From IMG/VR virus record IMGVR_UViG_3300032330_000578, positions 1 to 49,115 of that record: DNA of 49,115 nt. The stretch is one strand, 5' to 3'. Positions 15,062 through 41,786 of this stretch are shown piece after piece. Position 1 is the first letter of the stretch; every line of letters starts with the position of its first letter. The notes beneath the pieces are model-generated. The model made no database searches and was not told the origin of the DNA. It saw only the letters and a list, made by a program, of their open reading frames with translations. The position numbers and the translations under genes are program-made. This DNA comes from a virus (lineage: Duplodnaviria; Caudoviricetes).

Positions 15062-15920
15062 AAGAATTGTAATTCTTGGCGCTCGTGGTCAGATTGGTAG
15101 TGAGATTACTAGACTAGTTCGTGAGGGTCAACATAGGTGGTGGGCATTTAACGGTACTGTTTTTGATTACAACAATCCTGACAGAATCCGTCGAATAATG
15201 GATGAAATCCAACCTGAAGTTATCATCAACTGCGCGGCTTACACTAACGTAGCAACTGCGGAAGAGGCTGCTAATCATCGAGCCGTTAGTGAATTAAATA
15301 TTCAGTTACCTAAAAATCTAACTGATGTTGCCGGTGAGCACAATGCTGAGATTATTCATTTCTCTACTGATTATGTGTATGACGGTAAAAAAAATGAATA
15401 CAAAGAAGATGACAGGGTCAAACCATTAAACAATTATGGTCTAACCAAGAGCATTGGCGACAAGTTTGTATTAGAATATTCCAAATCTAAGGTGTTTCGA
15501 GTTCAAGCCGTCTACTCCAACCGTAACATTAATTTCTTCAGAAGCATTCAAGCCAAAGCCCTAGCAGATGAGCCTGCTACTGTTGTATCAGACCAGTTTA
15601 CAACTCCAACATCAGCATTATGGATTGCTAAGCAAGTCTATCGCACGTTGTTCACGCCGCAGTATGGTTTGTATCATCTATCTCCTAATGGGTTCTGTTC
15701 ATTTGCAGATTTTGCTGAATTGATTTACGCTACCAACTATCCAACAATTTACAATAAGCCAAATCCCCCTATCAAGAGAATCCATTACAAAGACCTAAAC
15801 GTATCTGTAAACCGACCTATGGTAACTATTTTAAATCATGAAAAGTTTAATAATGCGTTCTTCTCTATTACGGAATCATGGGAAGATGTCTATAATGAAT
15901 TTATTAAAATACCTAAATAG
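15054..15920 (+). CDS. rfbD: dTDP-4-dehydrorhamnose reductase
   Basis: GARGQIG, NCAAYT.V, STDYVYDG, YGLTK and DQ..TPT. Confidence 0.93.
   Translation: MNKRIVILGARGQIGSEITRLVREGQHRWWAFNGTVFDYNNPDRIRRIMDEIQPEVIINCAAYTNVATAEEAANHRAVSELNIQLPKNLTDVAGEHNAEIIHFSTDYVYDGKKNEYKEDDRVKPLNNYGLTKSIGDKFVLEYSKSKVFRVQAVYSNRNINFFRSIQAKALADEPATVVSDQFTTPTSALWIAKQVYRTLFTPQYGLYHLSPNGFCSFADFAELIYATNYPTIYNKPNPPIKRIHYKDLNVSVNRPMVTILNHEKFNNAFFSITESWEDVYNEFIKIPK
15912..15919 (+). promoter_or_regulatory. Late promoter variant
   Basis: CCTAAATA about 30 nt upstream of the ORF at 15951. Confidence 0.4.
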
Positions 15921-19259: not shown

Positions 19260-21533
19260 ATGGCATCAGCATCGGTACTACAGGCTTGGGAAAGAGCATT
19301 TAAGAGTGGCTCTAAATCCCTACAGCAAAAACTCAGAGCAGCCCATGGCAACAAACCTGAGTTCAAGAAGTTTTTAAAAGACCAAGGTCTTGAAACTGAA
19401 ACCAGTGTAAAGCAAGTGTCTAAGTCTCAGGTTGACAAGGTCAAGCAGAAAGCCCGTGAAAAACTAGCCGCAAAGGCATATGGTGCCACCAAGGGAACCC
19501 GTATGGGTGCTGCTGATGGTTCAGGTGAAACGCTCCGTGACACCATTGCACCACTTTCTCCTGAGCAACATGCTGCTGTTAAGACAGCAGAAAGAACTGC
19601 TAAAGCCGCTGCTAAACCAGCCGCCAAGCCTAAGAAAGAAAAGAAGTCAAAGGCTCCAAAACCAGAAGAATCTCGCCTAGACATGATTAAGCGTCTAGCA
19701 TCAAGAAAGAAGATTAACAATCCTCCTGTATCTGCTAAGCAGTTACGCACGATTGCGGCAGTTGGTGGTCAAGAACATGACCATGGCGGATTTGATGACC
19801 TCTCTGGTACTGGCTATGAACACTTAGGTGGTCGTCACAGCATGGATGAGATGAATAAAGAAATGCCTTTATCACGCGAACAACTCGATAACATGGCAAA
19901 GCAAAAGTCCGCAGAGTACGCAAAACTTTATGATAAGGTTTCGCCAGAAATGCGAAAAAAATTAAAACTTCCAGCAAAACTTCCAGAAGAAGTCAAAGAT
20001 AAAGTTAAGGCTAAAACACCTGCATCTTCGCCTCTACATGTCACACTGGACCAAGCATATGCAAAAGGTCGGTTTGGTCGTGCACCAAGAGGTAGCAAGA
20101 CCCTAAAGAATATGTCTGATATTAAACTTGCAAATAACTTGACAAGAGAAGAAACTGAATTTAAAGTTGGCGATAAAGTTTCGATACATTCACCAGATGA
20201 TTGGGATTGGCATGAGCGTAAGGGTGAATTAGTATCAACATCTAATGATGGTCATGTTGTAAAACTAAATGATGGCGGAATGCTATCAGTTGCAAAGCAT
20301 CAGATAAAGAAAATTGACGAAGAGATGAACAACCGTATCACTAAGATTCACGTTCGCGGTCAAAACGTAATTGTTCATAAATATGATACCGAGGCTAATG
20401 GTACATATAAGGAAGTAAAGCATCACTCTAGCGCAACAGCGGCACAAACATATGCTCGCCAATTACATAAAGCCAGAGGTCGTAATGCTAAACTTGTGAT
20501 TAATGAAAACATTATTGACAGATTTGTTGCTAATAAGATTGCTGCGTATCATAGCAATAAAGTTAAAGGTTCTGTAGAGCAATCTGATGCAGCCCGTGAA
20601 GCCGTCACTAAGAAAATGGAACCAATCAAGAAAAAGATTGAGCGCATTAAGGCTAGAGCATCCTACAAAGATAAGTCTCACGCAAGACATGATGAGACCA
20701 AACTAGACCTTAAGCATGCTAATGATGAACACGCAGCACTTAAAGCCGAGCGCGCAAAACACTATGATGCTTTTAAAAATGCATCAGCAGAAAGAGATTC
20801 TAATATTGCCTCAGACATGAAGACCTATGACAAGTATGGTCTTGTTGGTCTAGGTCTAAAACGTTTAAAGCAAAACATTCAAAAGGAAGAGACAATGAAC
20901 GAAGGTATCCTAAGCACAATTCTAGGTAAGAAGAAAGAACTAGCCAAGCCAACCCCAAAGAAGACTGGATACCAAGGTCTTCCTGCTGAGTGGAGCCAAG
21001 AGAAGCGCGGCAATGAATATGACGCCAACAAGTACATGGCTAAACTTAAGAATGAAGAATACAAAGAACCTTTTGAAGGCGGCAAAGAACCTTCCAAGAA
21101 TAAAGGTATTGTTGTCGGCAAGAGCCGTCCTGAAGGAATGTCACGTGTTGCTCACCTAGCCCGTCAAGCCCTAAAGAAGAAGGCTGCAATGAAGGAAGGT
21201 TACATGAAGGCAAACATGCCTGAAACAGAAGATGACAATGGTGCATCTGATATGGCAGAATATGAGCGTCAAGCAAAGAAGAAAGGCGTTCGTGCATATG
21301 ACAAGAAAGGCAACCTAGTTGGCAACTATCGTAGCATGGCAGATGCTAAGAAGTTTAAGCCTAATCATACATACAAGGAAGAAGCCAAACCATCTTCAGT
21401 CTATGCGCTAAATCCTGGTATGAAAGAAAAACTATGGGCAAAGCACATGGCAGATAAGAAAGCCTCTTCACAAGCACCTGCTGATAGAGCAGCCCGTATG
21501 AAAGATAGAATTGCAGCAGCAAAGAGCAAGTAA
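19260..21533 (+). CDS. Large charged low-complexity protein, probable capsid-internal polyprotein
   Basis: Lys/Glu-rich segments separated by (L/I/M)-x-E(E) sites resembling gp21 protease sites. Confidence 0.6.
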   Translation: MASASVLQAWERAFKSGSKSLQQKLRAAHGNKPEFKKFLKDQGLETETSVKQVSKSQVDKVKQKAREKLAAKAYGATKGTRMGAADGSGETLRDTIAPLSPEQHAAVKTAERTAKAAAKPAAKPKKEKKSKAPKPEESRLDMIKRLASRKKINNPPVSAKQLRTIAAVGGQEHDHGGFDDLSGTGYEHLGGRHSMDEMNKEMPLSREQLDNMAKQKSAEYAKLYDKVSPEMRKKLKLPAKLPEEVKDKVKAKTPASSPLHVTLDQAYAKGRFGRAPRGSKTLKNMSDIKLANNLTREETEFKVGDKVSIHSPDDWDWHERKGELVSTSNDGHVVKLNDGGMLSVAKHQIKKIDEEMNNRITKIHVRGQNVIVHKYDTEANGTYKEVKHHSSATAAQTYARQLHKARGRNAKLVINENIIDRFVANKIAAYHSNKVKGSVEQSDAAREAVTKKMEPIKKKIERIKARASYKDKSHARHDETKLDLKHANDEHAALKAERAKHYDAFKNASAERDSNIASDMKTYDKYGLVGLGLKRLKQNIQKEETMNEGILSTILGKKKELAKPTPKKTGYQGLPAEWSQEKRGNEYDANKYMAKLKNEEYKEPFEGGKEPSKNKGIVVGKSRPEGMSRVAHLARQALKKKAAMKEGYMKANMPETEDDNGASDMAEYERQAKKKGVRAYDKKGNLVGNYRSMADAKKFKPNHTYKEEAKPSSVYALNPGMKEKLWAKHMADKKASSQAPADRAARMKDRIAAAKSK

Positions 21534-23269
21534 TGGAACTGAAGCACGCTACTGACCTTGAGATTGCTAAGCATTTAGCATCTCATGCTGCAACTCCAAC
21601 AGGAAAGTCTAGAGAACAGAACAGAGTTGGTAAACTATTGGCTGATAGGAACGCAAGAATGAAAAAAGCACATGTTGTACAACCAATGGGTCTTGTATAT
21701 AAAGAAGACCGTGATGAAAACATGAAGCAAGAGATTGCTGACCGATTAGCCAATACTCCAGCAGAGCGTGCAGAAAGAAAGCATCGTGTACAAGTTGCTA
21801 TTAACAGAGCAAAACAACTTAGAGAAGGTAATAAAATGAAGACATTTTCCAAATTGCAGGAAGCAATTACTCCAGCATCACCAGCACTAGTTAGTGCAAT
21901 GAACAGTCTGTTGGCTGATAATTTTGCCTTCTATCTAAAGGCTCATAACTATCACTGGAACATTGAAGGTGCTGACTTTGCTCAGTATCATGAATTCCTT
22001 GGTAACTTGTATGAAGATGCTCATGGTGCAGTCGATAACATTGCAGAACGCATCCGCACACTAAAAGCCTATGCTCTTGGTACAATGGAAAACTTTATGA
22101 GCGAAACTTCTATTACAGAAGATTCTTCAGTTCCTGGTCCAATGCAGATGCTACAGAACATCACTATGGATAATGAAACTCTAATTGAATCCCTAACAAG
22201 AGCATACAAAGCCGCTGAAGCAGATGGCAGAGTTGGTCTTGCTAATTTCCTACAAGACCGTATTGACGCTCATGAAAAGCATGGCTGGATGCTACGCTCT
22301 CTTGTCAAAGGTAATCTATCAGAATCTGTAGACCTTAGTGAAGTAAATTCACGTCACAGTTTTGTTGCTGCTCAGGATAGACTAACTCCAAGAGCAAAAA
22401 ACGTTAAGCAAGCCCTAAGCACCAAAAGACGCGATGTAGCGGCAACTAACAAATATGGCAAAGTCATTGGCAAAATTGCTGGTATGAAGCCAAAGGAAGT
22501 TGTTGCCAATCTTAAGGATATGGGCGAAGAAGTCGAACTTGATGAAGATGCGCTAAAGGCAAGAGAGCAATGGATGAAAGCAAAGGGTGTATCAACTGGA
22601 AACCCTAAAGCAGACAGAGCCAGAAAAGTTAAAAGACTAATGAAATCCTTTCCTATGAAGAAAGAAGAAGTCGAGCAGATTCAAGAAGTTGGTCCGCAAA
22701 AGAAACTAAAGAGAGTATTTAACAAACTCCGTGATGCCCGTGCAGGGCAACGTTACAAGGATTCTGGTATGCCAGTTCCTGAGCGTGAACCTGGACACAA
22801 AAACACAGTAGACCACAACAAGGCAATTGGTCGCGCTCTTCGCAAGATGGGTGAAGAAACTGAACAGGTTGCTGAATCTGTTAAAGTTGGTCCTAAAAAT
22901 TACCACAAATCTACTGATACAGTTTGGCATGCTGTTCAACATAATGGCAAAGAAATTGGCACAATTGGTACAAATTCTGCGCAAAATGTAGAAAAGCACG
23001 GTAAGTGGGGATTTGAAGATTCACGTGGGTATGGGCGTAGACATGGTGAGCCTGAAATGAATTCAAAAGAAGAGGCTCTTGATGCTCTTGTAAATCGTCA
23101 CAAAGAATATACAAAACAGGTTAATGAAGTACTAAAGCCATCGATGGGCGCATCAGCATACATTCATGATTTTGTTCACTCAAAAAATGCTAAGTTTGCT
23201 GGCAAGTCTAAAGCCGAACGTACCAAGATGGCTCTTGGTGCATACTATAGTGCTAAGAAAGGCAAATAA
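21533..23269 (+). CDS. Dps/ferritin-like domain within a probable capsid-internal protein
   Basis: KAHNYHWNIEG, HEFLG.LYE, DNIAERIR and EKHGWMLRS; possible internal start at 21836 (MKTFSKLQE). Confidence 0.85.
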   Translation: MELKHATDLEIAKHLASHAATPTGKSREQNRVGKLLADRNARMKKAHVVQPMGLVYKEDRDENMKQEIADRLANTPAERAERKHRVQVAINRAKQLREGNKMKTFSKLQEAITPASPALVSAMNSLLADNFAFYLKAHNYHWNIEGADFAQYHEFLGNLYEDAHGAVDNIAERIRTLKAYALGTMENFMSETSITEDSSVPGPMQMLQNITMDNETLIESLTRAYKAAEADGRVGLANFLQDRIDAHEKHGWMLRSLVKGNLSESVDLSEVNSRHSFVAAQDRLTPRAKNVKQALSTKRRDVAATNKYGKVIGKIAGMKPKEVVANLKDMGEEVELDEDALKAREQWMKAKGVSTGNPKADRARKVKRLMKSFPMKKEEVEQIQEVGPQKKLKRVFNKLRDARAGQRYKDSGMPVPEREPGHKNTVDHNKAIGRALRKMGEETEQVAESVKVGPKNYHKSTDTVWHAVQHNGKEIGTIGTNSAQNVEKHGKWGFEDSRGYGRRHGEPEMNSKEEALDALVNRHKEYTKQVNEVLKPSMGASAYIHDFVHSKNAKFAGKSKAERTKMALGAYYSAKKGK

Positions 23270-24318: not shown

Positions 24319-24831
24319 ATGCCCAAGAAATTTAAGACTATTAGAGAGAATGCGGTTCCCGTGATGGGAGTAGGCAATGTTGGCGGTCCAGTATCAGATA
24401 ACAACCCTCCTGGTCCAAGTAAACTTGCAAAGGCAATTCTGCGCCGCAAGCGCCCTCTAAAAGAGGATGTAGCAAATCATATTGATGAGTTTAAGTCATA
24501 TGCCGCGCAAGAACTAGGCTTGCAAAATGTTCCAAACATCAACATTATTGATGACAGAAAAGCCGCACTAGACAATACAAGTTTTGGTAATTATTCTCCT
24601 GGTAGCAAGGACATTAACGTAAATGTTGCAGGTCGTCATGTTGCTGATGTGCTAAGAACACTAGCACATGAATTGGTTCACCACAAGCAAAATGAAGATG
24701 GCAGACTTACCCATAATGCTGGTGAGACTGGTAGCGATTTTGAAAATGAAGCAAATAGCAAGGCTGGCGTTCTAATGCGCAACTATGGCAAGAGAAACCC
24801 AGGCATCTATGAAGACTATGAAAACACTTGA
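24319..24831 (+). CDS. HExxH zinc-metallopeptidase-like protein
   Basis: LRTLAHELVHHKQ...ENEAN. Confidence 0.7.
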   Translation: MPKKFKTIRENAVPVMGVGNVGGPVSDNNPPGPSKLAKAILRRKRPLKEDVANHIDEFKSYAAQELGLQNVPNINIIDDRKAALDNTSFGNYSPGSKDINVNVAGRHVADVLRTLAHELVHHKQNEDGRLTHNAGETGSDFENEANSKAGVLMRNYGKRNPGIYEDYENT

Positions 24832-26233: not shown

Positions 26234-28036
26234 TTGCGCAAACTTATATTATTACTGTTGTGGGTTCCATTAGTATCTCACGCGCAAGTCAGCGGGACAA
26301 TCAATCGCCCATTGTCGCCTAAAGCAAAACCAATTGTAATCTACAGGACGGAAATAGACCCTGTTCCTGTAGTGGTAAGAGCAAGACGCCCACCACCAAC
26401 TCTACCTGCTCAGGTGTTTGCCCCGACATTAACGCCTAAAGAAGACCAACCGCTTGTCACTTTTGATACCAGACCACCAGCAGAACTGATTGCTGAGGCG
26501 CGAGCAAACCTAACCAATCGCGAAGGTCCATACGACATTGCTATCAATAATCTGCGTTCAGTAATCTTAACCGAAAAGCCCGACATAGCAAAAGAAGCCT
26601 ATGAACTATTAGGTTATGCTTATGAGAAGTCTAAGGATTTTGAGAAAGCAAAGATACAGTACAAAAAGTACATAACGTTATACCCTACCAAAGATGATGA
26701 CTGGACTCGCGTTCAGCAAAGATTAATGTCGCTCGAAATACTAGAGCCAACAGAACAATTTGCTAGCAGCGGAGTAAAGGACAAACCAAGAACTGGTGAT
26801 AGCAAAGAGTTTGAGGGGACAATCTCAGACTATGGATACTTTGGACAAAGCATTCAATCTTTGTTCGGTCTACAAACAACATACAAGACGGTTCATAACC
26901 AGTACAATCAAACCTATAGAATTAGATTCTCTGCATTAAATGATTTGCGTGAACCAAGCGTTAGTCGAAAGAACCTAGCCCAAGCCTACTGGGATTTTGA
27001 AGATACTTTTGAAAAGTATGGCATTCGCGTAGGACGACAGTCTCCTACTGCTGGTGCGATTAGCCGATTTGATGGTGTATCAGGAAGATTTAAGTATAAT
27101 ACTGAATGGAGTTTTGTTGGTGCAGTTGGACATCCGTATAGCGGACCATCATCAGATACGAATAGACTTTTCCAAGGCATAAGTGCTAATTGGAGAATTA
27201 GCCAAGACTATTCAGCAGGATTCTACTACAACCGTCAAACAGCAGACAAATTTCTAGAACGTTCAGCAGTAGGAACAGAAGTTCAGTATTCATCAGATAA
27301 TACAACAGGAATATTCAGACTTGAGTATGACCTAGTGTATAACAAGATTAATCAAGTCAGTTTCCAAGGTATGCGATATTTTGATAATTTTAACCTGTTT
27401 GCCGTAGTTGACAAAAGACGCTCACCAATGCTATTTGCAGATGTTGCATTAGGGCTAGGGGGATTAAATGCGGAACATCAGGTATACAATTCTGTTGGAG
27501 AACTGCTAAACCGTTCAGGATTGTCATCATCAGAGATATACAATTATATCTCAAACACAACGCAGATGGCAAGTTCATATGTTGTAGGTGGTAGTGTTAA
27601 CTTACCGCAGAAATGGACACTTACGACAGATTTTCAAATCACCAATCTATCAACTGCGCAAGGCTTCATCCTCTCACCGCAGTTTGACCCTGTTCCGGTG
27701 AAGATAGGACTTAACAACAATTACTCATTTAATGTGCATGGAAAAGGTGAAGATTTTCTGTATAAGGACAACACTTTTGAGGTTGTGCTAAACCGAACAA
27801 CAGGTTCAATCAATTCATACTTTGTTGCAGTTTCTGACATATACAGACTTGGTAGACATAATTTTTCAGTAACCCTGAGAGATGACGTTACAGATAAACA
27901 AACCATTACAGGAATTATCAGACTAATCTACGGAATCTCAGAGCATGGCACATTAGAAGCCCAGTATGCAAGAGTAATTGTACTTCCGGGAGATTCTAGT
28001 CAAACTCTTTACATAGGATACAGACAAGATTTTTAG
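26234..28036 (+). CDS. Signal peptide + TPR + outer-membrane beta-barrel (porin-like) protein
   Basis: MRKLILLLLWVPLVSHA signal peptide; TPR-like helix pair AYELLGYAYEKSKDFEKAKIQYKKY; many alternating amphipathic strands; C-terminal YIGYRQDF beta-signal. Confidence 0.8.
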   Translation: MRKLILLLLWVPLVSHAQVSGTINRPLSPKAKPIVIYRTEIDPVPVVVRARRPPPTLPAQVFAPTLTPKEDQPLVTFDTRPPAELIAEARANLTNREGPYDIAINNLRSVILTEKPDIAKEAYELLGYAYEKSKDFEKAKIQYKKYITLYPTKDDDWTRVQQRLMSLEILEPTEQFASSGVKDKPRTGDSKEFEGTISDYGYFGQSIQSLFGLQTTYKTVHNQYNQTYRIRFSALNDLREPSVSRKNLAQAYWDFEDTFEKYGIRVGRQSPTAGAISRFDGVSGRFKYNTEWSFVGAVGHPYSGPSSDTNRLFQGISANWRISQDYSAGFYYNRQTADKFLERSAVGTEVQYSSDNTTGIFRLEYDLVYNKINQVSFQGMRYFDNFNLFAVVDKRRSPMLFADVALGLGGLNAEHQVYNSVGELLNRSGLSSSEIYNYISNTTQMASSYVVGGSVNLPQKWTLTTDFQITNLSTAQGFILSPQFDPVPVKIGLNNNYSFNVHGKGEDFLYKDNTFEVVLNRTTGSINSYFVAVSDIYRLGRHNFSVTLRDDVTDKQTITGIIRLIYGISEHGTLEAQYARVIVLPGDSSQTLYIGYRQDF

Positions 28037-28041
28037 TTTTT

Positions 28042-28049
28042 ACTAAATA
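28042..28049 (+). promoter_or_regulatory. Late promoter variant upstream of the cytochrome gene
   Basis: ACTAAATA in an AT-rich gap, followed by a GGAGA Shine-Dalgarno at 28068-28072. Confidence 0.45.
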
Positions 28050-28080
28050 TAAACATTATCAATAAACGGAGAATTATGCA

Positions 28081-28839
28081 ATGTTTAAGGTAAAGAGTTT
28101 CATCGTAACAGTATTTCTAACAGTTATCCTGTTCGCATCTTATGATGCACCATTCAAGTTCAACCCGCTGCCTACATTTGCAGAAGCAGCTGAGTGCTCT
28201 TTATATGAAACGCTCCACCCAAACTTTCCGCTGACTGGTGCTCACCTTTCAACTGGTAAGTGCTCAACTTGCGCTTCTTGCCATGCTGGTGGTAGATTTA
28301 TTGGTACACCAAAAGTTTGTGCGACCTGCCATAACGGCTCCCCAACAAGCGCAACGGTTGGACGTTCTTCTTCCCATATTCCTATTGGTACAACAGACTG
28401 CGGCAGCTGCCATGCTACTGTAACCTTTACGACTGGCGTGGCTATGAACCACACTGCAGTTTCTTCGCAAAGATGTGATAGTTGTCACAATAATTCTTTT
28501 AGAACTTATAACGCTATAGGTAAGCCATCAGACCACATTCCTACAACAGCGGACTGCGGTACTTGCCACAAGAATACTGGACGTAGTTGGAGTGCCAGTT
28601 TTTCTTCAATCCACGCAGGTGTAACAACAGGTTGCGTAACTTGCCATAATGGTACAACCGCAAAGGGTAAGATTAATGCTCCTGGCGGTCACCCAATTAC
28701 TAGCGATGCTTGTGAAACTTGCCATAGTGTGAGCAATACTATCAGTTTTAAGTGCACTCAGATTATCAATGACCCTAAGATTCAAAAAATGCTTCTAAGC
28801 CCGTTCTTCTCCTCAGACTATCACACATACGGAAACTAA
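28081..28839 (+). CDS. Exported multiheme c-type cytochrome (7 CxxCH)
   Basis: CASCH, CATCH, CGSCH, CDSCH, CGTCH, CVTCH, CETCH; extra His before most motifs (GAH, SHIP, MNH, DHIP, SIH, GHP); hydrophobic N-terminus. Confidence 0.92.
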   Translation: MFKVKSFIVTVFLTVILFASYDAPFKFNPLPTFAEAAECSLYETLHPNFPLTGAHLSTGKCSTCASCHAGGRFIGTPKVCATCHNGSPTSATVGRSSSHIPIGTTDCGSCHATVTFTTGVAMNHTAVSSQRCDSCHNNSFRTYNAIGKPSDHIPTTADCGTCHKNTGRSWSASFSSIHAGVTTGCVTCHNGTTAKGKINAPGGHPITSDACETCHSVSNTISFKCTQIINDPKIQKMLLSPFFSSDYHTYGN

Positions 28840-28841
28840 TC

Positions 28842-29531
28842 ATGGCAGTATCAGGAATAATTTCAAGACCCGTAGGAAGTAGAGGTGCATCTGGTCTAAC
28901 CAAAGAAAAACTTTTACAGATTGTTCCTGCTGCTAAAAATACAAAACTAAATCTTGACTTACTAGTTGAGAGCCTAAATGAAGTTTGCGCAAAGATGGTT
29001 GATGAAGTTAATTTTGCTTCCATCAATCGCCAAGCCGCATTTATTGCTCAATGCGCTCATGAGTCCGGTAGTTTCTGCCGTGTTTCAGAAAACCTTAATT
29101 ATTCACCAGAAGGTCTGGTTAAGATTTTTGGCAAATATTTTCCAACTATTGAGTCTACCAAGAACTATGCTAGACTGCCGGAAAAAATTGCCAATAAAGT
29201 CTACGCTAATCGTATGGGAAATGGTCCAGAAACTTCTGGAGATGGTTGGAAATTTCGCGGACGCGGACTCATTCAACTTACAGGAAAGTCAAATTACCTA
29301 AAATGTGGACCAAGCCTGGGGATAGACCTGACTACATCTCCAGAATATCTAGAAACGGTAGCAGGCGCAGTAAAATCTGCTTACTGGTTCTGGAATACAA
29401 ACGGACTAAATTCTTTTGCTGATGCAGATGACATTAAAGGCATGACAAAGAAGATTAATGGTGGCTATATTGGATTGGAAGAACGTCAGCATCTATATGA
29501 TGTAGCAAAAAAGGTTCTTATAACAATATAG
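28842..29531 (+). CDS. Glycoside hydrolase family 19 endolysin
   Basis: AFIAQCAHESG, ENLNYS, RGRGLIQLTG and INGG..GL.ER. Confidence 0.93.
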   Translation: MAVSGIISRPVGSRGASGLTKEKLLQIVPAAKNTKLNLDLLVESLNEVCAKMVDEVNFASINRQAAFIAQCAHESGSFCRVSENLNYSPEGLVKIFGKYFPTIESTKNYARLPEKIANKVYANRMGNGPETSGDGWKFRGRGLIQLTGKSNYLKCGPSLGIDLTTSPEYLETVAGAVKSAYWFWNTNGLNSFADADDIKGMTKKINGGYIGLEERQHLYDVAKKVLITI

Positions 29532-30891: not shown

Positions 30892-31443
30892 ATGTTTAAC
30901 TTTATTCCTTTGCCTTACAGAATTTTAGCGGTTATACTATTAGGATTGTCTATATTTGGATTTGGATATTACAAAGGATTACAAGTTAGCAAAGAAAAAA
31001 TTGCATTGTTTGAAGCCAAGGCTAGACTTGAATATGAGCAACTTCGAATTGCCTACGAAAAAGCCAAGAATCATGTAAATGAAAAAATTGTTACTGAATA
31101 TGTTGACCGTATCATCTATGTTACTAAGTGGAGAACTAAAAATGTTGAAATCGTTAAAGAAGTCCCTTCTAATTGTGAGTTGTCTGCTGGTTGGGTGCAC
31201 GTCCACGATTCCGCAGCAGAGGGTCGTGATGCCAATTCCACCGCCGCAGCTGATGGAACCTCCTCAGAAATTAAAGACACTGAAGCCCTCGCAACCGTCA
31301 TCGACAACTATGGAACGTGTGCCGCCAACGCAGAAAAGTTAACTGCGTTGCAAAATTGGATAAAAGAACAAAAAGCCGAAGTGGATAATATAAATAACGG
31401 GAGCGCATCAGGTATAATTAACAGAGATAACAAGAATGACTGA
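30892..31443 (+). CDS. Rz-like inner-membrane spanin
   Basis: N-terminal TM, coiled coil, Cys residues; contains a nested lipoprotein gene. Confidence 0.75.
   Translation: MFNFIPLPYRILAVILLGLSIFGFGYYKGLQVSKEKIALFEAKARLEYEQLRIAYEKAKNHVNEKIVTEYVDRIIYVTKWRTKNVEIVKEVPSNCELSAGWVHVHDSAAEGRDANSTAAADGTSSEIKDTEALATVIDNYGTCAANAEKLTALQNWIKEQKAEVDNINNGSASGIINRDNKND
31142..31342 (+). CDS. Rz1-like outer-membrane lipoprotein spanin (nested)
   Basis: MLKSLKKSLLIVSCLLVGC lipobox, then Pro-rich PIPPPQLMEPP; +1 frame inside Rz. Confidence 0.75.
   Translation: MLKSLKKSLLIVSCLLVGCTSTIPQQRVVMPIPPPQLMEPPQKLKTLKPSQPSSTTMERVPPTQKS
31389..31396 (+). promoter_or_regulatory. T4-type late promoter
   Basis: Exact TATAAATA about 40 nt upstream of the ORF at 31436. 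Confidence 0.6.
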
Positions 31444-31891: not shown

Positions 31892-32920
31892 ATGAGCGTA
31901 TACATTGACCAAAAGTACATTGGTTCTTTGTCTTTCAAACTTGATTTATTCAAGAAAAAGAAGGATGACCTGTACAACTTTCGTTGCCCATATTGTGGCG
32001 ACTCCAAACGTAACAAAGTAAAAGCCCGTGCTTTTGTGTATCGAAAGTTAAATGGGTATTTCTTTATTTGCCATAATTGCGGCAAATCTACGACCTTTTC
32101 AAATTTCCTACAGTACATGGATGAAAACCAGTACAAACAGTATGCGTTTGAAAAGTATGCAGATGGCGCTGGTGTTCATTCTCCTGTAAAGAAACCCGAC
32201 TTTAATGAATACAAAGGTGGTGTTTTTGAGCATGTTTTTGAGAAAGAAAAAACGTTAAAACACCTTGAAAATATTGCAGACCTGCCTGATGGACACTTTG
32301 CCAAGGACTATATACTTAATAGGAAGATTCCTCAAAGTGCTTGGTCTGAAGTGTTTTACACAGAAAACTTCAAGCAATTTCTTGATTTGAATTATCCTAA
32401 TCACGGTAAAGAAAACATCCCAGACGATGCGCGAATCATTCTTTTCTACAAGAATGAGGGTGGCTCTGTCACTAACGTAGCAGGGCGCGCATTGGCTGAC
32501 TCTAAAATTCGTTACATTACCGTGAAAGTTGCTGAAGAGAAGAAGATTTTTGGTCTACAGAACGTTGACAAGAACAAACCAATTTATGTTTTTGAAGGTC
32601 AGTTTGATTCACTGTTTGTTCCTAATAGCGTTGCTTCTGGTGATAGCAATCTAATTGGTTGCGGCGAGTATTTCGGGAAAGATGCTGTTATTCTTGTATT
32701 TGATAATGAGCCTCGCAACAAAGAGATTGTCAGGCAAGTAGGCAAAGCGATTGAGCAAGGCTATCAAGTTTGTTTATTTCCCGAAGATGCTCCTGGAAAA
32801 GACATTAATGAAATGATTCAGAATGGAATGATTGTTGATGACGTCAAGATTATGATTAATAACAATACAAGTAAAGACCTATCTGCACAACTGAGATTAG
32901 TAACATGGAAAAAAGTATAA
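31892..32920 (+). CDS. gp61: DNA primase (gp61)
   Basis: RCPYCGDS...CHNC zinc finger, EG.FDS, FDNEPRN and KDINEM (TOPRIM). Confidence 0.96.
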   Translation: MSVYIDQKYIGSLSFKLDLFKKKKDDLYNFRCPYCGDSKRNKVKARAFVYRKLNGYFFICHNCGKSTTFSNFLQYMDENQYKQYAFEKYADGAGVHSPVKKPDFNEYKGGVFEHVFEKEKTLKHLENIADLPDGHFAKDYILNRKIPQSAWSEVFYTENFKQFLDLNYPNHGKENIPDDARIILFYKNEGGSVTNVAGRALADSKIRYITVKVAEEKKIFGLQNVDKNKPIYVFEGQFDSLFVPNSVASGDSNLIGCGEYFGKDAVILVFDNEPRNKEIVRQVGKAIEQGYQVCLFPEDAPGKDINEMIQNGMIVDDVKIMINNNTSKDLSAQLRLVTWKKV

Positions 32921-33678
32921 ACACCTATCGCTCCATCTTCATCTCAGATGTCCATTTAGGAACCAAGGGATGCAAAGCCGATTCGCTTTGCGATTTCCTT
33001 AAGCATAACACTTCTGACCAATTATTTCTTGTTGGTGATATGATTGACGGGTGGAGATTACGTCGAAAATTTTACTGGCATCAATCTCATACTAATGTTG
33101 TCCGTCGTATTTTGACGGCAGCAAAACGTGGCACTCATGTAACTTACATTCCCGGCAATCATGATGAAGATTTGCGCACATTGCTTCCATATGATATATC
33201 ATTTGGTAACATTGAAGTAGTCAACTGGGTAAAGTATCAGGCGCGTGATGGTAAATTTTACATAGTTTGTCATGGTGATATGTTTGATACTGCGCTACAA
33301 GGCAAGTTAAAATTTTTGTATCATTTTGGCGATGTTGCCTATGAATTGCTCCTAGCACTAAATGGCGCTTTGGCTTGGATTCGTCGGAAACTGAGGATGC
33401 CATACTGGAGTTTGAGTGCCTATCTAAAAGGCAAAACTAAAGAAGCGGTATCATACATTTCAGATTTTGAAGATTTAATTGCAAGTTACTGCAAAAATAA
33501 AGGTGCCGATGGAATTATTTGCGGACACATTCATCATGCCGCAATCAAAAAAATTGGAAATATTACTTACATGAATGATGGCGATTGGGTTGAGTCTTGT
33601 ACTGCTCTAGTTGAACATCATGATGGTAAGTGGGAAATTATTCATTGGGGAGATGTGCATGAAAGTACGATTGATTAG
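32905..33678 (+). CDS. Metallophosphoesterase, UDP-2,3-diacylglucosamine hydrolase (LpxH)-like family
   Basis: SDVHLG, GDMIDGW, GNHD, HGD, CGHIH and N.GDWVES. Confidence 0.85.
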   Translation: MEKSINTYRSIFISDVHLGTKGCKADSLCDFLKHNTSDQLFLVGDMIDGWRLRRKFYWHQSHTNVVRRILTAAKRGTHVTYIPGNHDEDLRTLLPYDISFGNIEVVNWVKYQARDGKFYIVCHGDMFDTALQGKLKFLYHFGDVAYELLLALNGALAWIRRKLRMPYWSLSAYLKGKTKEAVSYISDFEDLIASYCKNKGADGIICGHIHHAAIKKIGNITYMNDGDWVESCTALVEHHDGKWEIIHWGDVHESTID

Positions 33679-34325: not shown

Positions 34326-36230
34326 ATGGCAACTAGACTACCCAGCATTTATCAGGATTTCATTCACATTTCTCGCTATGCGCGTTTTAATGACACACTT
34401 GGTCGTCGCGAGACTTGGGATGAAACCGTAGACCGTTATATTTCATTTTTTCAAAAACGTACTGATAACAACAAGAAGGTGCCTTGGGAAGAAATTCGCA
34501 GTGCTATTCTAAATCTTGAAGTTATGCCATCTATGCGCTGCTTGATGACTGCTGGTCCTGCTCTTGAGAAAGACCAAGTGGCTGGATACAACTGCTCATA
34601 TGTTGTTGTTGATAGCCCAAAGTCATTTGACGAAATTATGTACGTTTTGATGTGCGGTACTGGCGTTGGTTTCAGTATTGAATCCCGTTACACTAACAAG
34701 TTGCCAGAGGTTCCAGATGAACTTCATCCAACAGACACTACAATCGTTTTTGCGGATTCCAAGATTGGTTGGGCAACTGGTTTTAGAGAATTCATTTCTC
34801 TGTTATATTCTGGTAAGATTCCTAAGTGGGATATGTCAAAGGTTCGTGCGGCTGGCGAAAGACTCAAAACATTCGGCGGCAGAGCATCAGGACCAGAACC
34901 GTTAGTTGACTTGCTCAACTTCACTCTTAACATTTTTCAAAAGGCTCATGGTCGTAAGTTGACGACATTGGAATGTCATGACATCGTTTGTAAGATTGCT
35001 GATATTGTGGTTTGCGGTGGTGTTCGTCGCAGTGCGCTTATTTCTCTTTCTGACCTTAATGATGACCATATTCGTCATGCTAAATCTGGTCAATGGTGGT
35101 TGGCTGATGGTCAACGCGCTTTGGCAAACAATAGTGCGGTATATGAAGATAAGCCTAGCATGGATACGTTCATGCAAGAATGGGTAGCACTTTATATGTC
35201 AAAGTCTGGTGAGCGCGGTATCTTCTCGCGTCAGGCATCTAAGGCAATCGCAGCAAAACATGGTCGTCGCGACCCTAATCATGAGTTTGGAACTAATCCT
35301 TGCTCTGAGATTATTCTTCGTCCATATGAATTTTGCAATCTCTCTGAGGTTGTTGTTCGCGCTGAAGATACGGTTGAAGACCTAAAGCGCAAGTGTCGTA
35401 TTGCTACTATCATTGGTACACTTCAGTCTACCATGACCGACTTCCGTTACATCAACAAGAAGTGGAAAAAGAACTGCGATGAAGAGCGTTTGCTTGGCGT
35501 TTCACTGACTGGTATTATGGACCATCCGCTTTTAAACGGTAGCATTCCATTAACGCTTCAACACGGTAATCTACCTCGCGCACTACAAGAAATGCGTAAG
35601 GAATGCGTTGATACCAATAAGAAGTTTGCCGACATTCTTGGTATTGAAGCATCTGCTGCTATCACTTGCGTGAAGCCATCAGGTACAGTTAGCCAATTAG
35701 TTGACTCTGCTTCAGGCATTCACCCACGCTACAGTCAGTATTATATCCGTCGTGTTCGTGCCGACAAGAAAGACCCTCTTGCTGATTTTATGATTAAAAA
35801 AGGTTATGTTGCCGAAGAAGACTTCTATGGTAAGAGCAACTGGGTGTTCTCTTTCCCGATGAAGGCTCCTGAAGGCGCAGTACTTACCAAGGATGTAACT
35901 GCCATCAAGCAACTTGAACTATGGCAGATTTACCAAGACCACTGGTGTGAGCATAAGCCATCTATCACCGTATATGTTGGTGATGATGAGTGGATGGAAG
36001 TGGGCGCATGGGTTTATAAGAACATGGCTTCGCTATCTGGTGTATCTTTCCTACCACGCGATACTGGTTCATATCGTCAGGCTCCGTATGAGGGAATTGA
36101 TGAGGCTAAGTATAAGGAACTTCTTGCTACTCAGAACGTTGAACTTAACTGGACTGAGTTTATGGAAGCGACAGATACTACAGAAAGTGCTCAGACATTA
36201 GCATGCGCAGCAGGTGGTTGTGAAATCTAA
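34326..36230 (+). CDS. nrdJ: Class II (B12-dependent) ribonucleotide reductase
   Basis: PSMR, YNCS, GGVRRSA, TNPCSEI, KPSGTVSQL and C-terminal C..GGCE. Confidence 0.93.
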   Translation: MATRLPSIYQDFIHISRYARFNDTLGRRETWDETVDRYISFFQKRTDNNKKVPWEEIRSAILNLEVMPSMRCLMTAGPALEKDQVAGYNCSYVVVDSPKSFDEIMYVLMCGTGVGFSIESRYTNKLPEVPDELHPTDTTIVFADSKIGWATGFREFISLLYSGKIPKWDMSKVRAAGERLKTFGGRASGPEPLVDLLNFTLNIFQKAHGRKLTTLECHDIVCKIADIVVCGGVRRSALISLSDLNDDHIRHAKSGQWWLADGQRALANNSAVYEDKPSMDTFMQEWVALYMSKSGERGIFSRQASKAIAAKHGRRDPNHEFGTNPCSEIILRPYEFCNLSEVVVRAEDTVEDLKRKCRIATIIGTLQSTMTDFRYINKKWKKNCDEERLLGVSLTGIMDHPLLNGSIPLTLQHGNLPRALQEMRKECVDTNKKFADILGIEASAAITCVKPSGTVSQLVDSASGIHPRYSQYYIRRVRADKKDPLADFMIKKGYVAEEDFYGKSNWVFSFPMKAPEGAVLTKDVTAIKQLELWQIYQDHWCEHKPSITVYVGDDEWMEVGAWVYKNMASLSGVSFLPRDTGSYRQAPYEGIDEAKYKELLATQNVELNWTEFMEATDTTESAQTLACAAGGCEI

Positions 36231-37815
36231 GTTAAGAAATTTTCCTTCTGTTAACTACCCAAGTTTGTATGAGTGCCCTGAAAGACGGGCATTCATGCAA
36301 TCTCAATTTAACAAGTATGGCATTACCAAAACAAACTGTTATTTGACTGAACGGTTTGCTAAACTAAAGTCCAATTTAGTAATATACAGCCACTACATTC
36401 CTATTAACACTGGGGAACCAGAAGCAACAGACATTCCAAGTCAGCCAGGAATTAACATATCTTTTCTCAACCTTATCAAGCAATGGTACGATAAAAATGA
36501 GGAAGAGTATGCAATATTCTGCGATGATGACATTAACCTATCCAGTATAGATTATTGGTCATTCACGTGGGATGAGTTTATGGCAAACTTGCCTGAAGAC
36601 TGGGAATGTATACAATTAATTCGAATTAACGATATCACTCAACATGATATCAATCTGACATTGCATAATGGATTCAAACGGCATGCTTTAGAAATCAGAC
36701 CAAGAGAGTGGGATGATTGGGGCACCACCTTTATGATTACTCGTGGATATGCAAAGAAACTTATTGACAGACACTATATCAATGAGTACACTTACAACTT
36801 TGATATCCCATGCCCAGTTTGGGGATGCTTGTATCCAATCTCAGAACATTTCTTTTTTAGAAATCTAGGAAAGGTCTATAACTTTCCGTTGTTCCAAGAG
36901 GAATCTGAGATACCCTCTACATTCAGAGAAAGTTGGATTAAAGCAAATCAAGGTAAACTTGATGACATCTATGAACATGACCGTATCCATAACACATCTA
37001 GAAAGATTTATCTAGACCTATGGCGCGCAGTTGGTTTGAGTACTCCAATACAGAAGATGATGCATACATCAAGTCCTCTTTATGGATTTAATTCAGTCAA
37101 CACAATTACGATGTCTGAGTCTGTAAAGCGTTATGAATACATCAACTCTTGTTTAGATGATATTGGTATACTGAATCGCGCAGTTCATATAAATGATAGA
37201 TTTGAACGAATCAAGGATAATATCCTATGGTATTGTTCAGACTCTAGTATTTGTAATGCTGGAATGGGAGTATCTGTTTCACATCTTGCGTCAATCAGAT
37301 ATTGGTATGACCAGACTACTGAACCTTATGCGTTGTTTACTGAAGATGATGTTGACTTAAGTGTTGCTAAGTTTTGGAAATTTAGATTCCAAGATGTTAT
37401 TAACAGAATGCCTAATGATTGGGAAGCAATTCAACTTGTTCGTATCAGAAATGAACCCGACTATGGCGGATTGCAACTTAGAGAAAGGCAATGGAATGAT
37501 TGGGGTTGCGCGGCATTCGTTGTTAAACGCGAGTATGCTAAAAAGATACTAGATAGAAATATGGATGGCAACAAGTATGTTCTTGCGCTAGGCAACTATC
37601 AACCAATAGTAGAAAACATTATGTTTCTTGGGCTTGGTAAAGTGTATAACTTACCGCTGTTTGCAGAGCATATATATGATAGCGTTGATTCGGATTTGTG
37701 GGACATTGAACGTGGCGTAAAAAACTTTCACCGCGATTCAAGCGAATACTATACCAATCTTTGGAAGACTAATACATTAACTCTTGATGAAATTATGGGT
37801 ATTAAACATGACTAA
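36214..37815 (+). CDS. Tandem two-domain glycosyltransferase (GT25-like)
   Basis: WY...YA.F.(E/D)DD...W.F...P.DWE.IQL.RI...DWG...GKVYN.PLF occurs twice. Confidence 0.7.
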   Translation: MVVKSKLRNFPSVNYPSLYECPERRAFMQSQFNKYGITKTNCYLTERFAKLKSNLVIYSHYIPINTGEPEATDIPSQPGINISFLNLIKQWYDKNEEEYAIFCDDDINLSSIDYWSFTWDEFMANLPEDWECIQLIRINDITQHDINLTLHNGFKRHALEIRPREWDDWGTTFMITRGYAKKLIDRHYINEYTYNFDIPCPVWGCLYPISEHFFFRNLGKVYNFPLFQEESEIPSTFRESWIKANQGKLDDIYEHDRIHNTSRKIYLDLWRAVGLSTPIQKMMHTSSPLYGFNSVNTITMSESVKRYEYINSCLDDIGILNRAVHINDRFERIKDNILWYCSDSSICNAGMGVSVSHLASIRYWYDQTTEPYALFTEDDVDLSVAKFWKFRFQDVINRMPNDWEAIQLVRIRNEPDYGGLQLRERQWNDWGCAAFVVKREYAKKILDRNMDGNKYVLALGNYQPIVENIMFLGLGKVYNLPLFAEHIYDSVDSDLWDIERGVKNFHRDSSEYYTNLWKTNTLTLDEIMGIKHD

Positions 37816-38788
37816 TTTTGTAACAAAAGTGTTAAATAGCGGCGGCAGCATTACGCCACTAATCATTCCAGCATCTGATAAGACTAAGGGCACTGGACTA
37901 TTTAATCCATCCATCTATAATGATAATGGCAAATTGCTACTCAACCTTAGACATTGCCAGTATACCATTTATCACGCAGAGAAAGGTAAGTTTGAGCACC
38001 ACTATGGTCCACTTGTATACCTTAATCCTGAAAATGATATTACACTAACAACTACCAATTACTTCTGTGAGATTGGAGATGATATGCTCATCTCCAAATA
38101 TACTGCTATTGATACTAGCAAACTTGATGTCACCCCTATCTGGGAGTTTGTTGGTCTTGAAGATTGTCGCGTTGTCCGTTGGGATAACAGATTGTATGTC
38201 TCTGGTGTGCGCCGTGATACAACACCTAATGGTCAAGGTAGAATGGAATTGTCTGAGATTGTACAAGAAGGCGATACAGTAAAGGAGGCGTCTCGCTTCC
38301 GTATTCCAGCGCCAACAATGGATACTTCATATTGCGAAAAGAATTGGATGCCTATTACAGACATGCCATATCATTATGTAAAGTGGAGCAATCCTACTGA
38401 AGTTGTACGCGCAGACCCTGTAACCAAAACTTGCAGCACGGTGTTCTTAGGAACATCCTATGTACAGAAGCCATATGACTATCGTGGCGGTTCACAAGTA
38501 ATTCCGTTTGGTGATTATAGAATCTGCCTAGCCCATACAGTTAATCTTTTTAACAGTAAAGCAGGCAGAAAGAATGCTACATACCGACATGTCTTTATCG
38601 TATGGGATAAGAACTGGAACGTAGTAAAGTATACTGAACCATTTGATTTTATGGGCGGTGAAATTGAATTTGGTTGTGGCATGACTCAATATGGTGATGA
38701 TATTCTTATCACCTTTGGGTTCCAAGATAATGCCGCCTATCTACTTAAGATGCCAGTAAAGTTTATTGAGGATTACATCAATGCTTGA
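37808..38788 (+). CDS. Beta-propeller glycosidase/phosphorylase-like protein (GH130/GH43-like)
   Basis: FNPSI, GLEDCR, EKNWMP, RGGS, EF.CG and FGFQD. Confidence 0.7.
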   Translation: MTNFVTKVLNSGGSITPLIIPASDKTKGTGLFNPSIYNDNGKLLLNLRHCQYTIYHAEKGKFEHHYGPLVYLNPENDITLTTTNYFCEIGDDMLISKYTAIDTSKLDVTPIWEFVGLEDCRVVRWDNRLYVSGVRRDTTPNGQGRMELSEIVQEGDTVKEASRFRIPAPTMDTSYCEKNWMPITDMPYHYVKWSNPTEVVRADPVTKTCSTVFLGTSYVQKPYDYRGGSQVIPFGDYRICLAHTVNLFNSKAGRKNATYRHVFIVWDKNWNVVKYTEPFDFMGGEIEFGCGMTQYGDDILITFGFQDNAAYLLKMPVKFIEDYINA

Positions 38789-40823
38789 TTTGATTAATGC
38801 TATTCGCGAATATTCTATTGACCCCGAAAATGCCGATAAGAATTATACGTTAGGTAGAATTTATGAAGACATAGGTCAGACTGCTGCTGCCATATCATAT
38901 CTTCTTCGTGCTGCTGAAAGAACAGAAGATGATGACCTAGCCTATGAATGTCTTATTCGTGTAGGTACTTGCTTTGACCGCCAAGATAATCGTCATCATA
39001 CAGTTCGTGGCGTATACAAGCATGCTATCATGCATAAGCCTGATAGACCAGAAGCATACTACTTTTTATCCAAGTTTGACAACTACTATCAGAATCATCA
39101 AGATGGTTACTACTATGCGCGTACTGGATTAGCAGTAGCCAATCCTAATCCTACGCCATTGCGCGGTGATGTTGGTTATCCTGGCATATATGGATTAATG
39201 TTAGAGAAAGCAGTTGCCGGTTGGTTGTGGGGTAAGCGGGAAGAATGCGCTGCTCTTCTTGATGACATTGTAACAAATCATTGGACTAATTTGACTCCTT
39301 GGTACAAGGATGCAGTCAATAATTGCTACAACAATTACAAACTAACACGTCCTAAAAATGGTTTGCGTATAGTTGATTGTTTTACCTATTACGATGAAAC
39401 TTGTCGTGAAATGTTAGAGTTGCGTTACAATGTGCTAAAGAATTATGTTGACAAATTTGTAGTTTGCGAGGCTAACAGAACGCAAACTGGCGAGTTGATT
39501 GAACGTAAGTTGCGCGCAACTCTACAAGAACTAAATCTGCCTCTTGATAAATTTGTCATCGTTGACGTTGACATTCCTGATGATGATACATTAATTGTGC
39601 ATGAGATTGATAAACTCAATTCGTATCAGAATGCTAATATCGAATCATACAAGGCTAGAGCGAGAGAGCGTCTACAGAAGAATGGATTGCACAAAGTTGT
39701 AGACCAGTTTAGCAACAATACCTACTTTATTGTAAGCGATTGCGATGAAATTGTAAATCCTAATAATCTTGAGCATATTATTGATATTGTTGAAAAAAAC
39801 AAAGACATGGTTGTAAAGATTCCATTAATTCACCTTGAAGGTCGCGCCAATCTCCGAGTACTCCGCACCGACAGTTGGACTCCAAAACCTTGGGATGGCG
39901 CAATGTTCATCTGTAAGAAGGAGCATCTACTACATGCTGAAGTAATTCAGATTCGTTCAAACATCTTTAATCCATATCAGATTGGATACATTAATGATAA
40001 AGGCAAGCGCGTTGAGGATTTGGGTTGGCATTTTTCTTGGATGGGTGATGCCTATCGTAGAAAGAAGAAACTTAATGGATTTGTACATCGTAATGAGAAA
40101 CTAGATTTTCTACAGACTGGAAGTTACGACAGTCAGGCTACGCTTGAGCGTATGGAAATTGAACCAGTTGCTGGCGCAATTTCAATCAGCTGTGAAGCAA
40201 ATACGATTCTTGCGCCATTTCCTGAATCGCAACTCCCTTCTGCTATCCTAGAGAATCCAAAACTTTACGCATTCTTTATAACTGGCAGCAAAGCAGATAA
40301 AGACTTAATCTTGAAGATGCTTGAAAGTGAGTATGAGAAGGCTTGCTCTGCTGATACTGATATCTTTAAGCATCTCCCAGTGCTTCGCAAATTTGCAAAA
40401 GAATGCAGTCATATTACAGAAATGGGCGTTCGCACGGGACAATCTACTCGCGCTTTGTTAGTGGAACCAGTAACGCTTAGGTCATACGACTTGTATCTAA
40501 ATGATGAAGTAGGCAAACTGTTTGCATTGGCGCAGGCTGCGGATAAGGATGTTAAGTACATTGAGGGCGATACATTACAAATTGAAATAGATGAAACTGA
40601 TTTGCTCTTTATTGATACTGAGCATACCTATACTCAGTTAGCAGCTGAATTAGAACTTCATCATCACAAGGCTAGAAAGTATATTGCTTTCCACGATACT
40701 GATAAGCCATTTGCAGAAGAATTGCTTCCTGCTATCATTGAATTTATGATTAGACATCCTGAGTGGGAATTCTGCCACCACAGCAAAGAATGTCATGGTT
40801 TCACCGTAATTAAGAGAAGATAA
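38781..40823 (+). CDS. TPR + GT17-like + methyltransferase fusion
   Basis: N-terminal TPRs; VDCF.Y...LELR...SDCDEI...GWHFSW (GT17-like); EMGVR.G.ST...FIDTEH...FHD (Methyltransf_24-like). Confidence 0.75.
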   Translation: MLDLINAIREYSIDPENADKNYTLGRIYEDIGQTAAAISYLLRAAERTEDDDLAYECLIRVGTCFDRQDNRHHTVRGVYKHAIMHKPDRPEAYYFLSKFDNYYQNHQDGYYYARTGLAVANPNPTPLRGDVGYPGIYGLMLEKAVAGWLWGKREECAALLDDIVTNHWTNLTPWYKDAVNNCYNNYKLTRPKNGLRIVDCFTYYDETCREMLELRYNVLKNYVDKFVVCEANRTQTGELIERKLRATLQELNLPLDKFVIVDVDIPDDDTLIVHEIDKLNSYQNANIESYKARARERLQKNGLHKVVDQFSNNTYFIVSDCDEIVNPNNLEHIIDIVEKNKDMVVKIPLIHLEGRANLRVLRTDSWTPKPWDGAMFICKKEHLLHAEVIQIRSNIFNPYQIGYINDKGKRVEDLGWHFSWMGDAYRRKKKLNGFVHRNEKLDFLQTGSYDSQATLERMEIEPVAGAISISCEANTILAPFPESQLPSAILENPKLYAFFITGSKADKDLILKMLESEYEKACSADTDIFKHLPVLRKFAKECSHITEMGVRTGQSTRALLVEPVTLRSYDLYLNDEVGKLFALAQAADKDVKYIEGDTLQIEIDETDLLFIDTEHTYTQLAAELELHHHKARKYIAFHDTDKPFAEELLPAIIEFMIRHPEWEFCHHSKECHGFTVIKRR

Positions 40824-41479: not shown

Positions 41480-41786
41480 GTACGATTTTGGATTTAGTTT
41501 TGAAGACAGTGAACCAACAACTCCTGTAGTTTCTAACAATACTGACCTTAAAGTTTTACAGGAAAAAGTAGACTCCCTTTTGACATCGCAGACTAGTTTG
41601 CTTGACACGCAGAACCAGTTGCTGGAAGAACGGTATAAAGCCAAGTTGAAGGAAGTAGAAGGCTTGATTCTACCGCTTCTATATAATCTGATGAAGAACC
41701 CCGATAAGGCTTACATCAAGTGGGAGAATCGGGCACCTGTCATACAAAAACAGATTGACAAGATTACGGCAATTACTAGGAGTTAA
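41469..41786 (+). CDS. Hypothetical protein
   Basis: MATEYDFGFSF start; LPLL.NL.KNPDK.YI.W.NR. Confidence 0.7.
   Translation: MATEYDFGFSFEDSEPTTPVVSNNTDLKVLQEKVDSLLTSQTSLLDTQNQLLEERYKAKLKEVEGLILPLLYNLMKNPDKAYIKWENRAPVIQKQIDKITAITRS

Follow-up and report, generated by a model that had tools for sequence, protein, structure and literature searches.

Why would a phage encode, side by side, a beta-barrel protein of the outer membrane and a heptahaem c-type cytochrome? The question is raised by the IMG/VR record IMGVR_UViG_3300032330_000578, a single 49-kb T4-like phage fragment (49,115 nt, estimated completeness 28%) that is the whole contig of its record and that we here call the window. On its plus strand, open reading frame (ORF) A (26234-28036, 600 residues, TTG start) is followed after 44 nt by ORF B (28081-28839, 252 residues, ATG start). 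The original prediction, made from the sequence alone, took the two for a candidate electron conduit and proposed to examine this by structure prediction, searches of bacterial genomes and viral databases, selection and read coverage. Judged by its homologues, the pair is a derived, phage-lineage miniature of the outer half (porin and 'extracellular' cytochrome) of the bacterial porin-cytochrome c cluster PCC3, and not a full member of that family. As to its role, we give slightly better than even chances to a late-made, host-matured haem wire across the outer membrane of an infected Gram-negative host.

The kinship with PCC3 is seen in both proteins. A profile search with the porin found 1,085 representatives at E <1e-30, and matches in bacterial genomes went down to E 1e-162, with homology over the whole length. 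The bacterial homologues sit in four-gene multihaem clusters in 20 of 31 loci, in the order membrane protein, 18-27-haem cytochrome, variable-haem cytochrome and porin; ten further loci are cut by region or contig ends, and one is of the mini type described below. This gene order matches PCC3 as defined in the accessible part of He et al. 2017 (PMC5566968), and the accessible part of Hoover et al. 2023 (PMC9900912) gives 10-35 haems for the extracellular cytochrome. Gene order and haem counts, not a comparison with a named reference strain (e.g. ES-1), identified the family. Of the two PCC3 cytochromes, that of the phage is nearer to the variable 'extracellular' one, N-terminus included, with best BLAST E-values of 6e-33 to 2e-14 (13 full-size proteins); its matches to the periplasmic cytochrome are far weaker (5e-10 to 4e-5, seven proteins). 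The proposed relationship to porin-cytochrome conduits is thus borne out for PCC3, in its outer half only, by gene order and BLAST. It fails for MtrAB and PioAB by family scores: TIGR03508 (DmsE family) gave 29.6 bits against a cut-off of 192.2, and no MtrB or PioB family of Pfam or NCBIfam was matched. As a separate observation, very large cytochromes of the PCC3 outer type, with 50-90 haem motifs and some in tandem, occur on the contigs L145, L146, L147, L150, L157, L159, L163, L164 and L166, where no porin match was found within the contig DNA examined.

The porin homologue (26234..28036, plus strand as for all features below), whose TTG start recurs in the related contigs L119 and L120, begins with a likely Sec/signal peptidase I signal peptide (residues 1-17; 26234..26284), read from the sequence and not from a predictor. 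A Pro-rich linker (residues 18-75) of low confidence follows, with a predicted local distance difference test score (pLDDT) <50 at residues 15-75, then TPR-like helices (residues 82-170; 26477..26743) that are probably periplasmic and a predicted 22-strand beta-barrel (residues 189-600; 26798..28033) with a terminal Phe. The AlphaFold2 model, built from a 39-sequence alignment (mean pLDDT 80.8), starts with a leader helix and the disordered linker, continues with the TPR-like helices (82-170) and ends in 22 strands that span 189-599. The leader, TPR-like helices and barrel that had been read from the letters recur in the model, and the protein folds as a beta-barrel in prediction. A weak TPR match at residues 121-152 lies under the Pfam cut-off; the TPR region is the most conserved part of the porin, with a column conservation of 0.97 among the six closest sequences and 0.71 among 32 phage-type rows. 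The loops L7 (398-443, helical) and L8 (473-492) are both long and conserved, and they face outward if strand parity is followed. In a fold search against 48,161 solved chains, the best matches were 22-strand TonB-dependent outer-membrane barrels (VIA: Z 19.5, root-mean-square deviation (rmsd) 3.9, 359 aligned), at sequence identities of 6-12% that indicate fold likeness only.

The cytochrome (28081..28839) has a leader of about 36 residues and a variable C-terminal helix, and it matches the Pfam family Cytochrome_C7. Seven CxxCH motifs (at 64, 80, 107, 132, 159, 185 and 211) are accompanied by seven further His (46, 55, 99, 124, 152, 178 and 204), which are invariant across 36 aligned sequences. 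This pattern fits seven bis-His haems and agrees with the exported protein with spaced His that had been described 44 nt behind the porin. Extra Cys at 39, 61 and 225 are also invariant in the aligned cytochromes. Since short paralogs of the cytochrome retain just the first two of these (equivalents of 39 and 61), a bond between Cys39 and Cys61 is likely, with Cys225 probably unpaired. Some short paralogs also retain the C-terminal motif of the 'extracellular' cytochrome. The haem-free cytochrome model was poor (pLDDT 55.7) and was left out of the fold search. Searches for cytochrome c assembly proteins (PF01578, six virus records) and CcmE (four records), both of which covered the window, gave no match, as the earlier remark on a lack of ccm genes in the window had it. 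As no maturation genes were found, the host must supply haem attachment.

The pair is not peculiar to the window. An alignment scan of IMG/VR yielded 20 loci of about 13 distinct types, a number that depends on our own grouping of near-copies. Porin and cytochrome are found together in 19 of the 20, and the twentieth starts within the cytochrome gene; the pair is thus conserved in the viral database. A 4-6-haem paralog lies between the porin and the 7-haem gene in 16 of the loci, and in four a small membrane protein stands beside the cassette. The neighbourhoods are unrelated between locus types. Carrier records reach 166-369 kb, and four of the five tested contain a gp23-type capsid gene; a PF00155 aminotransferase (AlaS) was found in none of five. 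Neither protein had a match among the 50,697 cultured phage records of INPHARED or a family match in PHROG, and 72,556 plasmids gave no porin match. Single-protein pattern scans with the porin returned nothing from viral or metagenome contigs, and alignment scans were required.

Does the pair belong to the phage genome? The window encodes a DNA polymerase, UvsX, helicase, primase, thyX, a class II ribonucleotide reductase, a GH19 endolysin and spanin-like genes, and the GC content of ORF A (40.6%) and ORF B (44.4%) compares with about 41% for the window. The pair recurs amid T4-like genes on two metagenome contigs, L119 and L120, with cytochromes 93-94% and porins 76% identical, and because relatives this close keep the pair in a T4-like setting it is not chimeric. 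In a sequencing run that may be the source of the window, contig depth is 11-14 over the locus and each outer junction is bridged by one contig (upstream gene-porin-cytochrome and cytochrome-endolysin), while inside the cytochrome gene two contigs meet with an overlap of just 3 bases. A chimera or host contamination is ruled out by the relatives, GC content, selection and junction coverage taken together. The original description of two intact, adjacent frames of phage-like composition amid phage genes is upheld by the coordinates, the GC content and the relatives.

Ratios of non-synonymous to synonymous substitution (dN/dS) are 0.048-0.097 for the cytochrome (six pairwise comparisons) and 0.045-0.048 for the porin (two pairs with unsaturated synonymous sites). 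These values, about 0.05-0.10 for both genes, place each under strong purifying selection. Compared with L119 and L120, the cytochrome gene differs at 28-36% of its four-fold sites, the porin gene at 57-60% and six neighbours at 41-70%. At synonymous sites the cytochrome gene has thus diverged roughly half as far as the porin gene and most neighbours, and we suggest that it alone was recently exchanged among related phages.

When would the genes be expressed? T4-type late genes are marked by a TATAAATA-like motif shortly before the gene, and such a motif is present as CTAAATA at 28043..28049, 37 nt before the cytochrome start. T4-like and some jumbo phages have TAAATA as the core of their late promoters, according to the accessible parts of two papers (PMC2984593, PMC5259590). 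It precedes the 7-haem gene in all 18 IMG/VR loci with upstream DNA and in all 19 phage or phage-like loci displayed, and the spacers around it are otherwise unrelated. The background in four phage sequences is 7-24% of genes (21/221, 67/276, 102/457 and 4/55), and only one of 32 bacterial homolog ORFs has the motif. The porin is preceded by it in eight of 18 loci. Scans for sigma-70 promoters and terminators gave hits at chance level. The motif therefore likely drives late viral expression of the cytochrome.

The origin of the cassette was analysed with a FastTree phylogeny of 117 porins. A long branch (SH 100) separates all 18 phage-labelled rows, 26 unlabelled rows and a single bacterial row, L036, from the other 30 bacterial rows. 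Five of the 18 are metagenome contigs labelled from context, L124, L131 and L138 being the least certain, and the tree is midpoint-rooted and thus fixes neither a donor nor a direction of transfer for L036. The barrels of phage subgroups are 27-33% identical to one another, and the motifs with the added Cys occur in two of 36 bacterial hits, both from L036. These patterns fit one old capture followed by spread among phages; a recent capture from a host is ruled out by the long phage branch, the subgroup identities and the near absence of the motifs from bacterial hits.

The exceptional row, L036, is part of the Methylophilaceae genome G001. Its mini set (G001:C4; L036 10007-12965) lies where the DNA is richer in AT, with a transposase and a toxin-antitoxin-like pair close by, and the TAAATA motif is absent there. 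G001 has a ccm operon and, on another contig, a PCC3 membrane protein with a 27-haem cytochrome, followed by unrelated genes (G001:C2:224283-227121; L229 9283-12122). The only matches to a porin and an outer cytochrome in G001 are those of the mini set, while two control genomes show their own long cytochrome. The ten Methylophilaceae genomes with the porin are the same ten that have the membrane protein. Such an arrangement in G001 would be expected if the mini pair could take the place of the outer half of PCC3.

Some phages also encode a counterpart of the PCC3 membrane protein. This mini membrane partner of 145-158 residues lacks the middle 140 residues and has SGxxG and both Wx3Hx13H motifs intact. 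It is present in five of nine related virus records and is unlinked to the cassette in two. The 149-residue form was seen far from the cassette, directly behind a gene for an outer-membrane barrel-like protein of 193-197 residues (L230 5263-6298, L231 1003-2050).

How could the haem wire work? The phage late sigma factor would transcribe the cytochrome from TAAATA, in the window genome jointly with the endolysin. Host Sec would export both proteins, host Ccm would attach the seven bis-His haems, and the host beta-barrel assembly machinery (BAM) would insert the 22-strand barrel. The periplasmic TPR would steer the thin haem chain into the barrel, where the loops L7 and L8 would hold it. Electrons could then pass between redox partners outside the cell (iron, organic quinones) and the host's periplasmic PCC3 cytochrome with its membrane partner or, where encoded, the phage's own 150-residue membrane partner. 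As an outcome, respiration and proton motive force would be propped up during virion assembly. A wider proposal is that large T4-like and jumbo phages domesticated a minimal, swappable conduit for late extracellular electron transfer, which would tie the respiration of the infected cell to pools of iron or organic redox compounds outside and which passed among unrelated lineages and occasionally back to bacteria; we rate this somewhat short of even.

Several observations weigh against the haem wire. No mini membrane partner is found in the near-complete records G546 (100%) and G547 (95%) or in the 28%-complete window, so that the phage set alone may fall short of the quinone pool. Furthermore, a CxxCH scan of the window, G547 and G544 (whole) and of 340 of the 369 kb of G546 found no periplasmic 21-27-haem cytochrome. 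Many possible hosts would also be without the PCC3 inner half, since porin homologs occur in only 10 of 151 Methylophilaceae genomes and 25 of 401 genomes of their order. The hint that the mini pair is interchangeable with the PCC3 outer half comes from G001, one metagenome-assembled genome whose completeness is not known. The promoter evidence is tempered as well: TAAATA is frequent in two of the jumbo carriers, where 22-24% of genes have it, its count in the window is not enriched (5 observed against 9.2 expected), and a match to the T4 late sigma factor gp55 was found in three of five related records. Late timing leaves little time for a gain in energy, at a cost of seven irons per molecule. 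In addition, and to the cost of every functional reading of the pair, PCC3 function lacks an experimental test even in bacteria, as stated in the accessible part of 10.1101/2025.02.27.639646.

A first alternative is a role in lysis or egress, where late electron leakage would tune proton motive force or redox state to time the holin, or would buffer oxidative damage to progeny. We consider this unlikely, although lysis genes do stand beside the cassette in several lineages and the late motif agrees with it. In the window, the GH19 endolysin gene (28842..29531), which lies outside the cassette, starts 2 nt past the cytochrome stop; given this spacing and the lack of a terminator-like site between the two genes, a shared late transcript is likely. 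The window, L120, L019, L034, L002 and L126 all have an endolysin of this family no more than 30 nt from the cassette; it stands to one side or the other, and two unrelated backbones are represented. A holin adjoins it in L017 and L120, and spanin-like pairs are found in L031 and L032. For the redox version of the idea there is a Dps domain in the window, and superoxide-dismutase-like and peroxiredoxin genes occur in G544. However, among the scanned neighbours (54 chosen of 175 listed) no lysis gene was recognised in L018, L023, L027, L028, L030, L131, L137, L132, L135 or L140. Promoter reasons alone make late envelope genes cluster, and a bacterium keeps the same mini set intact.

Two further features of these lysis-gene neighbourhoods were observed. 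The same pair of a holin and a 130-residue membrane protein borders the cassette in two phages that are unrelated, with side and strand reversed between them (L120 7883-8661, L017 7284-8064). In three loci the gene directly upstream of the porin joins a metalloprotease-like domain, akin to window positions 24319-24831, to a GH19 endolysin (L002 46-1116, L019 3649-4911, L034 5934-7214).

Alternatively, the pair might act as a receptor decoy or in superinfection exclusion, an idea that had been raised along with the conduit: a PCC3 wire on the host surface would be the phage receptor, and the short phage version would displace or cap it late in infection. The receptor-blocking lipoprotein of phage T5 acts in this way on FhuA. 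The phage retains exactly the surface-exposed half, with the outer wire cut from 10-68 haems to 7; late expression fits, and the haem motifs could persist for folding alone. Yet column conservation among the six closest sequences showed no sign of the variation of an arms race: the predicted outer loops (0.83) are as conserved as the strands (0.86) and above the periplasmic turns (0.71). A decoy also needs no membrane partner with intact haem-b ligands, which five of the nine virus records nevertheless carry, and the very different phage backbones would need one common receptor. The conserved loops and the intact cytochrome-b-like partner thus weaken the decoy, and we regard it as quite unlikely.

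Reductive iron scavenging, in which electrons sent outward would turn complexed Fe(III) into Fe(II) and the cell would take this up to supply phage iron enzymes, has a slim chance in our view. A likeness to the membrane domains of ferric reductases is described for the PCC3 membrane partner (PMC5566968, accessible part), the barrel fold is closest to that of 22-strand TonB-dependent iron transporters, and there is Dps in the window. Seven irons would, however, be spent on each cytochrome; replication enzymes need iron early whereas the motif is late, and the ribonucleotide reductase of the window is of the B12-dependent class. The barrel model is without a plug domain, and the fold match is generic (7-12% identity).

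Finally, we give an equally slim chance to a barrel that serves as an exporter with the cytochrome as cargo, produced in surplus and then set free or polymerised outside (e.g. via Cys225) as a shuttle or filament and not a fixed plug: the cytochrome's own late motif and ATG, next to a porin with TTG and the motif in eight of 18 loci, suggest unequal amounts, the TPR-barrel exporters PgaA and BcsC are among the feature look-alikes (0.90-0.91) and the third invariant Cys is odd, but look-alike scores have the standing of leads, no route is known for a folded multihaem chain through such a barrel, and the idea differs from the haem wire mainly by stoichiometry.

A few other genes bear on the host. 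A spanin-like gene in the window (30892..31443; weak PHROG Rz-like matches, E 1e-4) contains a nested lipoprotein ORF with a lipobox-like Cys (31079-31342), and this arrangement points to a Gram-negative host. The nearest polymerase from a cultured phage is only 52% identical (cyanophages), the relatives of the Dps domain bear no informative names, and no host marker was found among 148 proteins chosen from the carrier records G547 and G544.

Other genes of the window and of the carriers are recorded here in their own right. The Dps/ferritin domain (residues 122-258, Pfam E 4e-25) is part of a lysine-rich protein of 578 residues (window 21533-23269); its closest relatives are stand-alone Dps proteins of 145 residues, and the domain is stand-alone in L119 and fused in L123. 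Extensive blocks of nucleotide-sugar and glycosyltransferase genes lie at 72-5098, 12741-15920 and 36214-43526, and a calcineurin-like phosphoesterase (32905-33678) has a 59% identical counterpart in L032. In a 326-kb phage, genes for FecR, curlin repeats and a 680-residue membrane protein stand just upstream of the cassette (L018 281-4848). An HD-GYP-like phosphodiesterase and a response-regulator-like gene adjoin it in two carriers, G547 (L186 11993-12565) and L030 (5596-6288).

Phage auxiliary genes are known for photosynthesis, methane oxidation and ammonia oxidation. We found no report of a phage porin-cytochrome conduit in the literature within reach, which did not extend to subscription journals and preprint supplements, and the accessible part of a 2026 paper on electron uptake by ES-1 (PMC13390432) does not mention PCC3. 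The nearest report, in its accessible part, is on amoC-phages (bioRxiv 10.64898/2026.06.18.733297), large phages with multihaem cytochrome c and porin genes. Their cytochrome, however, belongs to the NapC/NirT type and their porin is OprP, which is phosphate-selective; the two are near-identical to host genes and are not called a conduit. AmoC/PmoC was found in none of five of our carrier records, by a search that matched in no control genome either. If the haem wire is real, viruses would directly join iron and organic-matter redox cycling by virus-encoded extracellular electron transfer. The mini set would then be the smallest natural test system for the role of PCC3 and a compact part for bioelectrochemistry; its two genes and 7 haems, against four genes and 30-90 haems in bacterial PCC3, make expression far simpler.

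When comparing the pair to known systems, we find partial likenesses to several. With TonB-dependent transporters it shares the 22-strand barrel, but its N-terminus is TPR-like, with neither a plug match in Pfam nor a plug in the model. By sequence profile, the c7-repeat cytochromes of Geobacter (PDB 3ov0 and 3ouq; E 3e-5 and 3e-4) are the sole relatives with a solved structure; this match is weak and partial (about 85 positions) and implies no porin partner. MtrAB, MtoAB and PioAB likewise place a large outer-membrane barrel next to a multihaem cytochrome, and MtrB is a structural match to the porin model (6r2q_B, Z 15.1, rmsd 5.0, 345 aligned). The MtrB barrel has 26 strands, whereas the phage pair has 22 predicted strands, a TPR domain and 7 haems instead of 10. 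PCC3 is closest: the porin is homologous, and so is the cytochrome, which has a common N-terminal pattern and spends about 27 residues on each haem; some phages add a membrane partner with SGxxG and two Wx3Hx13H motifs. The phage set differs from it in having 7 haems (plus the 4-6-haem paralog) instead of at least 10 in the extracellular cytochrome, no 21-27-haem periplasmic cytochrome in the scanned phage sequences, and a membrane partner that is halved to about 150 residues, optional and sometimes unlinked. It is also distinguished by its gene order, with the porin first, then an optional short cytochrome and the 7-haem cytochrome, and by three added invariant Cys and a T4-type late motif.

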